Of a stretch of DNA of 64,000 nucleotides, positions 19,022 to 24,307 are shown in pieces. Origin of the DNA: Gaiellales bacterium (GTDB lineage: Bacteria; Actinomycetota; Thermoleophilia; Gaiellales; Gaiellaceae). The stretch spans positions 14,879 to 78,878 of the forward strand of contig JBBRXG010000003.1 of the NCBI GenBank assembly GCA_038248655.1. Reading direction: 5' to 3'. The notes beneath the pieces are model-generated. The model searched no databases. It saw nothing but the letters and a program-made list of their open reading frames with translations, and was not told the DNA's origin. The translations under genes were made by a program, and so were the position numbers. Numbering within the stretch: position 1 is the first letter of the stretch; the number at the start of each line of letters is the position of its first letter.

Positions 19022-19378
19022 CTACCGTCGGGACTGCGATCCCGATCGTCGATGACGCTCCTGAGGGTGATCCCGGTCGATCTGTTCACGCGCCTCACCG
19101 ACCTTCTCGACCACCACGAAGCCGACGTGTTTCTGGACGACCTGCTCGACGTCCGGCTGCACGTGACCCGGAACGACGACGAATCTGTATCGCTGGGACA
19201 GGATCTGCTCATAGAGGACGGGCGGCACGTCGATCTTCTCCAGGCACGGGGTCTTCGCGCATTCGCAGTGGAACGGCATCGGGTCGCCGACGCCATGGAG
19301 CTCGGCTCCCTCCTCGATCTTCCGGTTCACGTCCCGGACGATCTCCTCGTTCCGCGCCGCGCGTTGCGCGAAGTCCAT
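19022..19378 (-). CDS. Hypothetical protein
   Basis: ORF 19022..19411. I prefer the ATG at 19378 (MDFAQRAARNEEIVRDVNRKIEEG...). No family is recognised. Confidence 0.4.
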   Translation of the reverse strand: MDFAQRAARNEEIVRDVNRKIEEGAELHGVGDPMPFHCECAKTPCLEKIDVPPVLYEQILSQRYRFVVVPGHVQPDVEQVVQKHVGFVVVEKVGEAREQIDRDHPQERHRRSGSQSRR

Positions 19379-19478
19379 CCCCTGCCTTGAGATCAACCTG
19401 AGTGGCATCATCTCGCCGTTCCTATTCTCTCTGCCTTCCCGACCGACAGCGCCCCGTCGATCGCTTCCAAGGTGGCGA

Positions 19479-20141: not shown

Positions 20142-20378
20142 CTACCGGACCCGTGGCGGCGCTGTCCCGGGTGGCGGAGGCGGCACCGGCGGTTGCCCGA
20201 TCCCGCTGCGGAAGCGCGCCTGCAGCTCCGCCAAATCGAGTTGTCCGAGCAGGAGGGCGGCGCCGAGGTAGAAGACGACCGCGCCGACGAGGCAGAGGAT
20301 CCCAGCCGCGAAGTCGACGCCGATCCACACAGCGACGAAGGCGAAGCCGAGCGCTGCGGCGAACTGTCCTGGACTCAT
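20142..20378 (-). CDS. Small integral membrane protein (DUF2273-like)
   Basis: 78 aa with two hydrophobic helices and a Pro-rich tail. It is the last gene of the Asp23 operon and has a 4-nt overlap with the upstream gene. Confidence 0.5.
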   Translation of the reverse strand: MSPGQFAAALGFAFVAVWIGVDFAAGILCLVGAVVFYLGAALLLGQLDLAELQARFRSGIGQPPVPPPPPGTAPPRVR

Positions 20379-20986
20379 TTGAGCTCCCTTCGGTGTTTGC
20401 GGTCGAACCCGGTCAGCGTGACGTTGACGGGCATCTGGGGTAGATCGTGCTGGGCGAGCGCAGCGTCGACGCGATCTCGGACGTCGTAGACGGTGCCCGG
20501 AACTTCTCGCGCCTGATCAACGGCGACGCTCACGTTCAACCCGTCCTCTCCGCCGTAGCGTGCCGCTGCGCCGCTAACGGCCGGATGCTGACTTGCCGCG
20601 ACCTCAGCGGCCCGCTCGATCGCGCGCGGCTCGACGCTGACCGTCGTCAGCTCGTCCTCATAGAGGTCGAGGCTGCTGCGTGCGAGATACGGACGGGGGA
20701 TCTTCTTCCACGCGAGATAGGCGCAGAGCAGGAACGTGGCCAAGCCGGCGAGGCCCGCGATCAGGCGTACGCGGTCGGTTATGTCGCCCGCCTCAAGACC
20801 TGCGAAGTAATCGTAGATCGTCCGGTACCCGCTGATCTGGTCGACGCGGCGCGGGGACGCCTTCAACCCGAGCAATGCCAACATTAGGCCGTACCAGACG
20901 AGTGCGCCGCCGGCGACGACAACCAGCAGGTCCCCGAGATAGCCGATTGGGGAGACCCGGATGCGCAGACGCTGGCGCACCATCAC
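20375..20986 (-). CDS. Membrane protein of the AmaP (Asp23 anchor) type
   Basis: 203 aa with two N-terminal TM helices and then a soluble domain. Its position in an Asp23 operon supports the call. The family name is from recollection only. Confidence 0.5.
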   Translation of the reverse strand: MMVRQRLRIRVSPIGYLGDLLVVVAGGALVWYGLMLALLGLKASPRRVDQISGYRTIYDYFAGLEAGDITDRVRLIAGLAGLATFLLCAYLAWKKIPRPYLARSSLDLYEDELTTVSVEPRAIERAAEVAASQHPAVSGAAARYGGEDGLNVSVAVDQAREVPGTVYDVRDRVDAALAQHDLPQMPVNVTLTGFDRKHRRELK

Positions 20987-21585
20987 TGCACCCGTGCACG
21001 CCCCCGCTCGCCCAGTCTTGGGCGCACGCGGGTTCGGAGGTGGAACGCATTGGCGAGCGGCTCGACCGCGCCGCTGACGCGTGTGACGATCTCATTCGGT
21101 GCGCGGTTCCTGGGGTGGAAGGCGGTCACTCGCAGCCCGCCCCCAGTGCGCCAGCGGCTCGACCGAACCCGGGTCTTCGCGAGGCTGACGCCGCGCTCCT
21201 GCTCCGCCAGCGCCGCGGCGATCTGCGTCAGGGGCCGGCGCCGTGCGGCGAGGGTAGATCCTTCCTCCCCATCGAGCACGAGCACGCGCTCGCGACGGGG
21301 TGCCAGCTCTCCCACGAGCACCAGCAGCCCGAGCGCGGCCGCCGCCGCCCCGGCGCCGACCGAGATCCAGGCAGTCGGCCCGCTGCGCTCGAGAGACGAG
21401 AGATAGTCGCCGGCGATGTCCTCGAGTTGGGGCAGCCGGAAGTGGGCTGCGAGCCTTGGGAGGCTGAGTGTATTCGAGTTGCCCTGCAGGGAGAAGATCG
21501 CGGTCGCCAGCCCGAGAGCAGCGAGAGCCACCAAGAGCAGGAAGGCGATCGCGCGCGCCAAGGCGCGGAGCGCGAGAACGATCAC
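20983..21585 (-). CDS. Membrane protein (DUF6286/AmaP-like paralogue)
   Basis: 200 aa with the same two-TM plus soluble-domain layout as the next gene, and 4-nt overlaps on both sides. Confidence 0.45.
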   Translation of the reverse strand: MIVLALRALARAIAFLLLVALAALGLATAIFSLQGNSNTLSLPRLAAHFRLPQLEDIAGDYLSSLERSGPTAWISVGAGAAAAALGLLVLVGELAPRRERVLVLDGEEGSTLAARRRPLTQIAAALAEQERGVSLAKTRVRSSRWRTGGGLRVTAFHPRNRAPNEIVTRVSGAVEPLANAFHLRTRVRPRLGERGRARVQ

Positions 21586-21932
21586 AGAGGTTCTCCCATC
21601 GGTTCGACGTCCTCGATCGAGACGTCGATCGAGCCAACGAGATCTCCGAGCCCTGCTTGCTCCGCTGTCCGGACGATCCGCTCACGAATCAGCTCCGCCA
21701 ACTCGCGAAGCGGCACGGGCCGCGCGATCAGGTGGAGCTCGATCGCGTATCGCCCGTCGGCCTGTGCAGCCGCCACGATCCCGGGCAGGCGCTCGCCGTC
21801 GACCTCGGTGATCCAGACGCCGTTCGGCCCGGCATCGGTGCCGGCGACGTCCGGGACTGCAAGCGAGGCTCCGAGCGCAATCTGCGCCAGCGTGGCACGC
21901 TCCGAGGAGCGCTGCGTCTCGAGCTCAGACAC
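21582..21932 (-). CDS. Asp23/Gls24-family protein (short)
   Basis: 116 aa with an Asp23-like layout (IALGASLAVPDV...YAIELHLIARPVPLRELAELIRERI...IDVSIEDV). Confidence 0.6.
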   Translation of the reverse strand: MSELETQRSSERATLAQIALGASLAVPDVAGTDAGPNGVWITEVDGERLPGIVAAAQADGRYAIELHLIARPVPLRELAELIRERIVRTAEQAGLGDLVGSIDVSIEDVEPMGEPL

Positions 21933-21952: not shown

Positions 21953-22468
21953 CTATTCGACTCGCTGGGGTTCTGGGACCTCGTCGCCCGGGAAGTAAAG
22001 ATCGTCCACCGCGATGTTGACTTCGGTCACCGAGAGACCGGTGATGCCCTCGATGCGCTTGATCAGGTTGTCGCGGACTGCCTGCGCGACTTGGGGGATC
22101 GACTCGCCGTACTCGACGACGATCGTCAGATCGACGGCCGCCTCGCGCTCGCCGACCTCGACCGATACTCCCTGACTGCGCTCGTCACTGATACCGACGC
22201 GCTGGGTGACTGCGCCCATCGCCCGTGACACGCCCCCGCCGAGCTCGTGCACGCCACGCACTTCGCGCGCCGCGATGCCGGCGACCTTCGTGACGACGGT
22301 ATCCGCGATGCTGGTCGAACCGCGCTCGGACTCGAGCGGCGAGGAGGCCTCAATCGACCTCGACGCGGTGGTCTCCTTCGCGGCCGCGGCCCCGCGCGCG
22401 GCGCTCCGGCTGCGACCAGTGCTCGGCGTGGTCTGCTCGCCTCCGATTGTCGTATCGTCTGATCCCAC
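21953..22468 (-). CDS. Asp23/Gls24-family envelope stress protein with a low-complexity N-terminus
   Basis: GTG at 22468 is preceded by AAGGAG. The core reads IADTVVTKVAGIAAREVRGVHELGG...VDLTIVVEYGESIPQVAQAVRDNLIKRIEGITGLSVTEVNIAVDDL. Confidence 0.8.
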   Translation of the reverse strand: MGSDDTTIGGEQTTPSTGRSRSAARGAAAAKETTASRSIEASSPLESERGSTSIADTVVTKVAGIAAREVRGVHELGGGVSRAMGAVTQRVGISDERSQGVSVEVGEREAAVDLTIVVEYGESIPQVAQAVRDNLIKRIEGITGLSVTEVNIAVDDLYFPGDEVPEPQRVE

Positions 22469-22565
22469 GGTCGTCTCCTTTGCGTGCGGCTTGTGGACAT
22501 CGCGGGTCGATGTCTCCTGATCATTTAGAACGAGACATGTGCAAAAAGTTCCGCGGCCGGTGACA

Positions 22566-23258
22566 TTACGGTCGAGGTCGCTCCGCAAGCCGGACCCGTC
22601 TGGGCTCCGGAGTGCTCGGGAAGCCGTACACGTCGTCGACCGCGATGTCGATCTTGCCCGGCTCGAGCCCGGTCACTCTCTCAACCCACCGGACAACGCG
22701 GTCGCGTATGCCAGCCGAGACAACGGGAATCCGTCTCCCGTACTCGATCACGATCCGGATCTGGACGTCGACTCGGTGCCCATCCACGGCGACCGTCACC
22801 CCGCGAGCAGCCATCCCGCCAGGGCTGTTACCGGACACCGCAATCGCCCCGCGCGCGCTGAGCGCGTAAACGCCCGGCGTCTCGCGAGCGATCCGCGCGA
22901 CGAGCCGCGCCACAACCGTGTCGGCGATGCGCGTCACGCCGCCGGGGCCTCCAAGCAGCGCGTGACGGACGAGTCGCGGAACCACGATCTCCAGCGGGAC
23001 GAGCTGGCCGAGCGCCCTTAGCTCGCGCCGGATCCGGCGTACGACGCTCTCGACCAGGCCGGGCGGACGGACGATGGCCTCGCGAGCTACCTCGCGCACA
23101 ATTCCCCAGAGAGGCTCGAGGTGCCGCAATGCCGCCTGACAATGCGGGCAGCTCTCCTGGTGCTTGGCTTCCGCCGGGGGAAGCCCCTCGGCCACCTGAT
23201 CGATCAAGGTTGCCAACTCCACCCCGCAGGGCAGGCGCTCGAGATGGTCGGCGGTCAT
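22566..23258 (-). CDS. Putative zinc-binding (ZAS, HxxxCxxC) anti-sigma factor fused to an Asp23 domain
   Basis: 230 aa. The N-terminus carries H-QES-C-PH-C. The C-terminus reads IADTVVARLVARIARETPGVYAL...VDVQIRIVIEYGRRIPVVSAGIRDRVVRWVERVTGLEPGKIDIAVDDV. No TM segment is seen. There is a 4-nt overlap with the ECF sigma gene. Confidence 0.65.
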   Translation of the reverse strand: MTADHLERLPCGVELATLIDQVAEGLPPAEAKHQESCPHCQAALRHLEPLWGIVREVAREAIVRPPGLVESVVRRIRRELRALGQLVPLEIVVPRLVRHALLGGPGGVTRIADTVVARLVARIARETPGVYALSARGAIAVSGNSPGGMAARGVTVAVDGHRVDVQIRIVIEYGRRIPVVSAGIRDRVVRWVERVTGLEPGKIDIAVDDVYGFPSTPEPRRVRLAERPRP

Positions 23259-23926: not shown

Positions 23927-24091
23927 TTATTTGCCCTTCAGCTTGTCAGCAACCTTATCGACCGCGCGCTTGGCCTTGGCGCCAGCCTGGTCGACTTTGC
24001 CCTCGCGCTGTAGCTCCTTGTCACCAGTGAGGTCGCCGGCGGCCTCCTTCGCGCGGCCCTTGCCCTCGTCGAGCTTCTCCTTCATGGTCAT
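23927..24091 (-). CDS. CsbD-family stress protein
   Basis: 54 aa: MTMKEKLDEGKGRAKEAAGDLTGDKELQREGKVDQAGAKAKRAVDKVADKLKGK. A GGAAGGA RBS lies upstream. Confidence 0.8.
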   Translation of the reverse strand: MTMKEKLDEGKGRAKEAAGDLTGDKELQREGKVDQAGAKAKRAVDKVADKLKGK

Positions 24092-24230: not shown

Positions 24231-24234
24231 TGTG

Positions 24235-24307
24235 AGCGGGGGACGGGGTTCGAACCCGCGACCCTCAGCTTGGGAAGCTGATGCTCTACCAACTGAGCTA
24301 CCCCCGC
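24235..24307 (-). tRNA. tRNA-Gly (anticodon CCC)
   Basis: Reverse complement GCGGGGGTAGCTCAGTTGGTAGAGCATCAGCTTCCCAAGCTGAGGGTCGCGGGTTCGAACCCCGTCCCCCGCT folds as a cloverleaf, with anticodon loop TTCCCAA. Confidence 0.9.

Follow-up and report, generated by a model that had tools for sequence, protein, structure and literature searches.

The stretch of DNA analysed here (the window) comprises 64,000 nucleotides from a Gaiellales bacterium (GenBank assembly GCA_038248655.1, contig JBBRXG010000003.1, positions 14,879 to 78,878) and is rich in guanine and cytosine (about 70%). A gene on its reverse strand encodes a 230-residue protein for which the sequence gives good support as a soluble, predicted anti-sigma factor of the zinc-binding anti-sigma (ZAS) type joined to a complete Asp23 domain. 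It lies directly behind the gene of an extracytoplasmic function (ECF) sigma factor. The association of ECF sigma factors with Asp23 proteins has already been published; what is added here is that the Asp23 protein next to the sigma factor is joined to a cryptic, putative class-I ZAS-like domain. The features of this gene pair are as follows, in coordinates of the window.

22566 to 23258, reverse strand: fusion gene, predicted ZAS-like anti-sigma domain plus Asp23; 230 aa, soluble
23013 to 23258, reverse strand: cryptic class-I/ZAS-like anti-sigma domain (predicted), residues 1–82, with profile homology to RsiW
23226 to 23228, reverse strand: codon of Cys11, putative fourth zinc ligand, invariant in homologue alignments
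23139 to 23162, reverse strand: H33-x3-C37-x2-C40 motif (HQESCPHC), invariant in homologue alignments
22935 to 23012, reverse strand: linker with the conserved PLExVVPRLVRHALL helix, residues 83–108; in the AlphaFold2 (AF2) model a helix over residues 89–100, then a hinge of low predicted local distance difference test score (pLDDT)
22629 to 22934, reverse strand: Asp23 domain, residues 109–210, Pfam PF03780
23255 to 23791, reverse strand: ECF sigma factor, 178 aa; Pfam Sigma70_r2 (7.6e-20) and Sigma70_r4_2 (7.3e-16)

The preliminary description of this gene had ascribed to it an N-terminal HxxxCxxC motif, a 4-nt overlap with the ECF sigma gene, a complete Asp23 domain paralleling the one encoded downstream and the lack of a transmembrane (TM) helix, all of which were recovered. 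The sigma TGA and the ATG of the fusion gene share the four letters ATGA, and a GGGAG Shine-Dalgarno-like sequence is located approximately 6 nt 5′ of this ATG. The zinc motif reads H33-QES-C37-PH-C40, and it is accompanied by a further cysteine toward the N-terminus, C11, which that description did not contain. No TM segment was detected in the fusion protein, whose maximum 19-residue Kyte–Doolittle mean was 1.18 versus 2.3–2.7 for the operon's three membrane proteins. The Pfam Asp23 model (PF03780) matched residues 109–210 with 62.3 bits (cut-off 28) over model positions 5–107 of 108. Residues 107–223 are 39% identical (E = 2e-20) to the Asp23 protein encoded downstream, with a PEPxRV tail in common. 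The C-terminal tails past the Asp23 domain are alike in the two proteins, FPSTPEPRRVR in the fusion (22566–22610) and FPGDEVPEPQRVE in the stand-alone Asp23 (21953–21985), both on the reverse strand, and are kept in the closest relatives.

The AF2 model of the fusion protein (mean pLDDT 80.8) is composed of N-terminal helices at residues 15–24, 31–36, 38–59, 68–82 and 89–100, a disordered hinge at residues 96–108 (pLDDT < 50) and an Asp23 alpha/beta domain at residues 113–211. In a Foldseek search, the full-length model was matched mainly through the latter domain, whose neighbours were the cytoplasmic metal-binding C-terminal domains of the cation diffusion facilitator (CDF) transporters MamM, MamB and YiiP (template modelling score approximately 0.7–0.78 on the target, E approximately 1e-3). 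As the sequence identity of these matches is only about 10%, the likeness of the modelled Asp23 domain to the CDF domains probably reflects a shared ferredoxin-like fold and not homology.

The N-terminal domain carries the residues expected of a ZAS site. A fourth ligand was sought as a Cys or His lying about 20–27 residues N-terminal of the motif, in or before helix 1, and C11 is found in this place. No variation was observed for C11, H33, C37 and C40 in alignments of 26, 64 and 113 homologues, and C11 is likewise invariant in an alignment of 60 sequences; the 26-homologue alignment, which extends down to 30% identity, shows G12 to be invariant besides these four putative ligands. The pattern C-x(~21)-H-x3-C-x2-C was present in 215 of 217 family members checked, with a C-to-H spacing of exactly 21 residues in most of those measured (188/213). 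Such conservation of the putative ligands is far beyond chance. The logo of the family reads H-Q-x-x-C-(P/V)-H-C-Q-A-A-L, and in the alignment of 113 fusions the N-domain is the best-conserved part of the protein. The CxxC pair is usually C-P-H-C (23139–23150 on the reverse strand), its histidine occurring in 78% of members, which is the same tetrapeptide as in the active site of DsbA. This extra conserved histidine could be an alternative ligand.

Homology of the N-domain to known anti-sigma factors was found by profile comparison. A 25-sequence N-domain profile searched against 177,635 PDB sequences returned RsiW first (E = 0.034) and RslA second (E = 0.11). The same two proteins were at the top with a more diverse profile of 60 sequences, RsiW (5wuq_C) with E = 3.9e-5 and RslA (3hug_B) with E = 0.15. 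The alignment of the latter profile to RsiW spans HxxxCxxC, helix 3 and the “veaPxxlxxxVm” helix 4, and a direct hhalign comparison of the N-domain with RsiW gave a probability of 73% (E = 3e-5). In the AF2 model, the N-terminal helices come in the order expected for this type of domain; H33 ends one helix while C37 and C40 begin the next, so that the motif is placed at the helix 2/3 junction as in ZAS domains.

This domain is paired with an ECF sigma factor whose closest solved structures are ECFs of the RpoE/AlgU/SigE/SigW type. In all 13 genome loci collected with a scan built on a 17-sequence alignment, the ECF sigma gene is located directly 5′ of the fusion gene. The same order occurs in Actinomycetospora, on a Pseudonocardia plasmid (with the 4-nt overlap) and on two metagenome contigs (L014 and L015). 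An ECF sigma gene was found immediately upstream of the N-domain gene in every context examined, including that of relatives without Asp23. The profile homology to RsiW, the invariant putative zinc ligands, the translationally coupled ECF pairing and the lack of a TM helix together argue for identity as a soluble ZAS-type anti-sigma factor.

The fusion is conserved across Actinobacteria. A word-indexed search yielded 31 homologues, every one labelled just Asp23/YloU. When a profile of the N-terminal 80 residues was compared with 1.84 billion representatives, 377 clusters were matched at E ≤ 1e-3 and 232 at E ≤ 1e-10, and a profile constructed from 113 full-length fusions matched at least 501 clusters (90% identity) at E ≤ 1e-10. 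In all 120 matches listed for the latter profile, the precomputed annotation consists of PF03780 alone. We collected 339 N-domain proteins, which comprise 241 with a near-complete Asp23 domain, 28 with a truncated one, 15 true stand-alone forms and fragments for the remainder; the fused architecture thus dominates, with Asp23 present in at least 269 of the 339. The named sources all belong to Actinomycetota, namely Gaiellales, Gaiellaceae, Solirubrobacterales, Jatrophihabitantaceae, Streptosporangiaceae, Actinomycetospora atypica and a Pseudonocardia plasmid of a cultured strain.

Two ENA metagenome contigs (L014, 6001–6656, and L015, 6001–6619) contain frameshifts, through which the fusion is called as two or three genes. 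They were considered as split anti-sigma and Asp23 genes and rejected, since six-frame inspection shows the protein to continue in another frame. Such frameshifted records inflate the apparent count of “N-domain only” proteins, and many short proteins of this kind are cut records that enter the start of the Asp23 domain and are not stand-alone forms. The preliminary description had allowed for a strain-specific artefact due to a lost stop codon between two genes that are separate in relatives. This is refuted by the census of architectures, because the fusion is dominant and conserved and the two split-looking loci are frameshifted. One metagenomic protein of 247 aa (P0160) contains a sigma factor and the N-domain in a single polypeptide, with Arg at the first Cys of the CxxC pair, and is most likely a chimera due to misassembly or a frameshift rather than a natural fusion of sigma and anti-sigma.

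The 15 stand-alone proteins are 110–115 aa in length and contain no Asp23 domain.

L016 5001 to 5333, L018 4144 to 4485 and L019 1275 to 1616: stand-alone N-domain proteins; P0064, P0065 and P0068, with about 12 others

Their genes always follow an ECF sigma gene and precede that of an MscS-like channel, overlapping each of the two by 4 nt. A C-terminal tail, LLPRLGWALLTYGGL, is conserved in this class, and among the short proteins only this class of about 112 aa, recognised by its PRLGxALLxY tail, truly stands alone. A 16-residue linker insertion, PLExVVPRLVRHALL, occurs only in the subfamily of the Gaiellales protein (26 sequences) and, as LLPRLGWALLTYGGL, in the stand-alone class, while the other fusions are devoid of this linker helix. 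Because the insertion is common to these two groups only, the alignments suggest that domains were shuffled between the fused and stand-alone formats. Since the stand-alone form keeps its pairing with the sigma factor without Asp23, the constant partner of the sigma factor is the N-domain and not Asp23.

The fusion gene is followed on the same strand by a promoter-like element and a five-gene module.

22525 to 22552, reverse strand: ECF-type promoter-like element GGAACTTTTTGCACATGTCTCGTTCTAA, between the fusion gene and the Asp23 gene
21953 to 22468, reverse strand: stand-alone Asp23, 171 aa; Pfam Asp23 97 bits; GTG start after AAGGAGA
21582 to 21932, reverse strand: divergent Asp23-like protein, 116 aa; no Pfam match; syntenic in L001–L011
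20983 to 21585, reverse strand: membrane protein, weakly DUF6286/AmaP-like, 200 aa; TM segments 1–35 and 71–96; syntenic
20375 to 20986, reverse strand: membrane protein, weakly DUF6286-like, 203 aa; TM segments; syntenic
20142 to 20378, reverse strand: small membrane protein, last gene of the module, 78 aa; hydrophobic segments over residues 3–52; syntenic in L001–L011

The GTG start of the 171-aa Asp23 was assigned from the ribosome-binding site and the homologous loci; a longer open reading frame (ORF) would cross the promoter element. The 116-aa protein gave a hhalign probability of 83% (E = 9e-6) against the family profile over the Asp23 domain, and as a divergent Asp23-like protein it brings the number of Asp23-fold proteins at the locus to three. 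The order sigma, fusion, Asp23, 116-aa, 200-aa, 203-aa and 78-aa protein is kept in L001–L004 and L008–L011. In L005–L007 the sigma/fusion pair stands immediately behind the five-gene Asp23 module, so that adjacency is kept despite the permutation.

The promoter-like element has the layout GGAACTTT-N14/15-TTCTAA and stands in front of the Asp23/AmaP-like module. A search of the window with the pattern GGAACTTT-N13-17-TCTAA gave one match, where 0.00 were expected. At the syntenic position, one exact match was found in each of 9 loci and a version with one mismatch in 2 more. The sigma-E-type consensus is a GGAAC/TCTAA-type promoter, which fits an RpoE/SigW-like sigma factor, and we take the GGAACTTT...TTCTAA element to be of this RpoE/SigW-type ECF form. 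On account of this conserved and unique ECF-type element, and of the AlgU/RpoE/SigE/SigW relatives of the sigma factor, the Asp23 module is very probably the local regulon of the adjacent sigma. In L005–L007 the sigma/fusion pair could be read through from the promoter-like element of the module.

Other genes lie on both sides of this region. A 129-aa Cys-containing ORF (19022–19411, reverse strand) that matches no Pfam family is located 3′ of the module, and gave two weak tblastn matches near L005 (36–571). A CsbD-like general-stress gene (23927–24091, reverse strand; Pfam CsbD, E = 8e-12) is situated directly 5′ of the sigma gene, another being present near L014, and a tRNA-Gly gene with anticodon CCC (24234–24307, reverse strand) lies between it and the next ORFs.

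Among characterized systems, RsiW is the closest solved relative by sequence and ChrR the closest analogue by architecture. RsiW of B. subtilis (PDB 5WUQ) and RslA of M. tuberculosis (PDB 3HUG) align with the present N-domain over C/H...HxxxCxxC, helix 3 and the “xxPxxhxxxVMxxh” helix 4, and each is likewise encoded directly 3′ of its ECF sigma. They are membrane-spanning, whereas a cytoplasmic Asp23 domain is found here in place of the TM and extracytoplasmic parts, and the N-domain sequence is too divergent for Pfam zf-HC2. The first zinc ligand is His in ChrR but Cys here, and the C-terminal domain of ChrR is a cupin instead of Asp23. ChrR of Rhodobacter sphaeroides is otherwise built in the same manner, as a soluble protein with an N-terminal ZAS and a C-terminal sensor domain (PMC8999054). 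RsrA and RshA are also soluble and possess a Cys-His-Cys-Cys zinc site, which is putative here; the residues around the HCC motif that determine redox behavior are not conserved in the present family, and RsrA has no C-terminal domain. The stand-alone class is paralleled by SigX-CfrX-CmpX of P. aeruginosa (ECF102), in which a small soluble putative anti-sigma is combined with an MscS-like channel, as an analogy of circuit design only.

The staphylococcal asp23 operon is SigB-dependent. In the Asp23–AmaP system of S. aureus, an Asp23 protein, membrane proteins and a small membrane protein are combined in one module as at the present locus (PMC6954212), where the AmaP/DUF6286 similarity is weak. 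No staphylococcal Asp23 protein is known to carry an anti-sigma domain, whereas at the present locus the putative regulator includes an Asp23 paralogue. Most ECF anti-sigmas are membrane proteins. According to the 2021 ECF classification, one TM helix is typical of the anti-sigmas in 82 groups and soluble anti-sigmas are predicted in 10 (PMC7826278). In the same work, Casas-Pastor et al. connected ECF286 and ECF292 with neighbouring Asp23 genes and put Asp23 forward as an anti-sigma of a novel kind (PMC7826278), and a 2022 review places both groups under “unknown mechanism” (PMC8999054). Reference proteins are WP_003983642.1 of S. rimosus for ECF286 and WP_036395736.1 of M. cosmeticum for ECF292. 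In gene neighbourhood these groups resemble the present locus, in that several genes of the Asp23 family surround an actinobacterial ECF sigma and no canonical regulator is annotated. They differ in that the sigma-adjacent Asp23 protein here bears a cryptic, putative ZAS-type domain. A search of the literature gave no account of a ZAS domain in these Asp23 proteins.

From these observations, the 230-aa protein is proposed, with moderate confidence, to be the cognate anti-sigma factor in a homeostatic loop coupled to Asp23. Residues 1–82, as a divergent class-I ZAS-type domain with ligands C11, H33, C37 and C40, would sequester the sigma factor, as judged from homology and gene coupling, and the cytoplasmic Asp23 domain would stand where such proteins typically have a transmembrane and extracytoplasmic sensor. 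To judge from the S. aureus Asp23–AmaP system, this domain would most likely join a membrane-proximal assembly of Asp23, the 116-aa protein and the AmaP/DUF6286-like proteins. The sigma factor would use the conserved GGAACTTT-N14/15-TTCTAA promoter to transcribe the Asp23 module. When the Asp23 assembly is disturbed or depleted, the state of the anti-sigma would change and the sigma would be freed, leading to production of more module and to its own re-sequestration. Such a loop would be Psp-like in its logic, analogous to PspA–PspF. In the latter system an effector protein doubles as a negative regulator, which resembles the logic proposed here as an analogy of circuit design only. The zinc site of the fusion protein is probably structural and not a thiol-oxidation switch. 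The tethering route suggested in the preliminary description, through Asp23–Asp23 or Asp23–anchor contacts with release upon a change of the assembly, is plausible by analogy with S. aureus. Asp23 of that organism is bound to the inner membrane face via AmaP and forms filaments, and its loss induces a cell-wall stress response (PMC6954212). A more specific version, in which the anti-sigma would co-assemble with an Asp23 filament or AmaP-like scaffold so that Asp23 polymerisation or membrane binding is itself the signal, with the sister lineage wired to an MscS-type channel, is offered as a tentative extension.

Several results weigh against the proposed loop or the domain assignment beneath it. 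Searches of the full protein with Pfam and NCBIfam gave no anti-sigma match, and zf-HC2 (PF13490) had no match at E ≤ 10 in 25 isolated N-domains. The ZAS identity given in the preliminary description is therefore upheld by the homology, ligands, pairing and solubility described above and not by the curated families; since these miss the N-domain, the assignment rests on profile evidence. Foldseek with the isolated N-domain model returned nothing significant (ChrR first at E = 2.6, RslA at rank 7), a result that we weigh as neutral. On the side of the module, neither of the two larger membrane proteins reaches the curated Pfam or NCBIfam cut-offs for DUF6286 or AmaP: the 200-aa protein gave E = 2.2e-5 and 25.3 bits for DUF6286 (cut-off 35) and E = 0.0025 and 17.6 bits for NCBIfam AmaP (cut-off 55), and the 203-aa protein gave E = 0.02 and 15.8 bits for DUF6286 (cut-off 35). 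Both are weakly AmaP-like, by topology (N-terminal TM segments plus a C-terminal domain) and position only. Autoregulation would be indicated by an ECF-type promoter ahead of the sigma gene, and none was found there in the non-permuted loci. In L012, L013, L020 and L021 the sigma/fusion pair has no adjoining Asp23 module; the partners, if any, are encoded elsewhere in these lineages, so that the homeostatic loop cannot rest on adjacency everywhere.

Other explanations were compared with this loop. The protein could be a redox switch similar to RsrA, of which the Cys3His site is the sensor and thiol oxidation ejects zinc to free the sigma, Asp23 merely localising or stabilising it. The ligand set C-H-C-C as in RsrA and RshA and the cytoplasmic location are in agreement with this, and a soluble ZAS protein is the classic format of redox sensing (PMC8999054). 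However, the RsrA determinants E39, E40, L45 and E46 (PMC3177212) are replaced here by R/A/Q, D/S/G/T, Q (79%) and A (85%), and for this reason the oxidation trigger, which the preliminary description had also named, is considered less likely. In addition, the best match among solved structures is RsiW, the very protein that was swapped against RsrA in experiments on the HCC region (PMC3177212), and an envelope module, not a set of thiol-redox genes, is the sole target with a conserved promoter in the vicinity. The redox switch is hence unlikely. Alternatively, the sigma factor may be released at the hinge or linker by regulated proteolysis or by another partner, such as the membrane proteins, instead of by a change of the Asp23 assembly. 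The disordered hinge at residues 96–108 and the conserved linker helix in common with the MscS-linked class would provide a site for this, and ChrR and many class-I anti-sigmas are degraded upon signal (PMC8999054). The neighbourhoods examined contain no conserved protease gene, though, and most of the family is without the linker helix, which makes this route quite improbable.

Two further possibilities concern the role of the N-domain itself. The protein might have no regulatory role and be a member of the sigma regulon, transcribed together with the sigma gene: an Asp23 paralogue extended by a zinc-ribbon-like part. That would agree with the database labels, which are simply Asp23/YloU throughout, and with the above failure of Pfam, NCBIfam and the structural search of the N-domain to point to an anti-sigma. 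It is difficult to reconcile with the strict 4-nt coupled position right after the sigma gene in every context, with the significant profile match to the RsiW anti-sigma domain, which includes helix 4, and with the N-domain staying beside the sigma where an MscS neighbour replaces Asp23. We thus regard it as highly improbable. Lastly, Asp23 itself may be an anti-sigma of a novel kind as proposed in PMC7826278, and Asp23 copies are indeed enriched around these sigma genes. Against this, the 110–115-aa stand-alone form is paired with the sigma without any Asp23, and the part of the fusion that is homologous to a known anti-sigma domain and best conserved is the N-domain, from which only a very remote chance is left to this proposal.

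The cryptic ZAS domain probably explains ECF groups such as ECF286 and ECF292, to which the locus was matched by neighbourhood and which were reported without a canonical regulator. The vague proposal of Asp23 as a new anti-sigma thereby becomes a concrete and testable two-module model, and a domain family of several hundred clusters emerges that Pfam, NCBIfam and RefSeq have left unannotated. The MscS-linked sister class suggests that the same putative sigma-binding module has been re-used for different membrane sensors of the cytoplasmic face. Proteins of the Asp23 family abound in Gram-positive bacteria, and what they do at the molecular level is not yet clear (PMC6954212). The present locus gives a handle on this function, and the conserved GGAACTTT...TTCTAA element is a ready reporter for whatever perturbs the Asp23 system. 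If the tentative extension holds, in which the state of Asp23 is itself the signal, these proteins would form an actinobacterial family of modular sensors that monitor membrane state from the cytoplasmic side, and they would show directly, for the first time, what Asp23 proteins sense.

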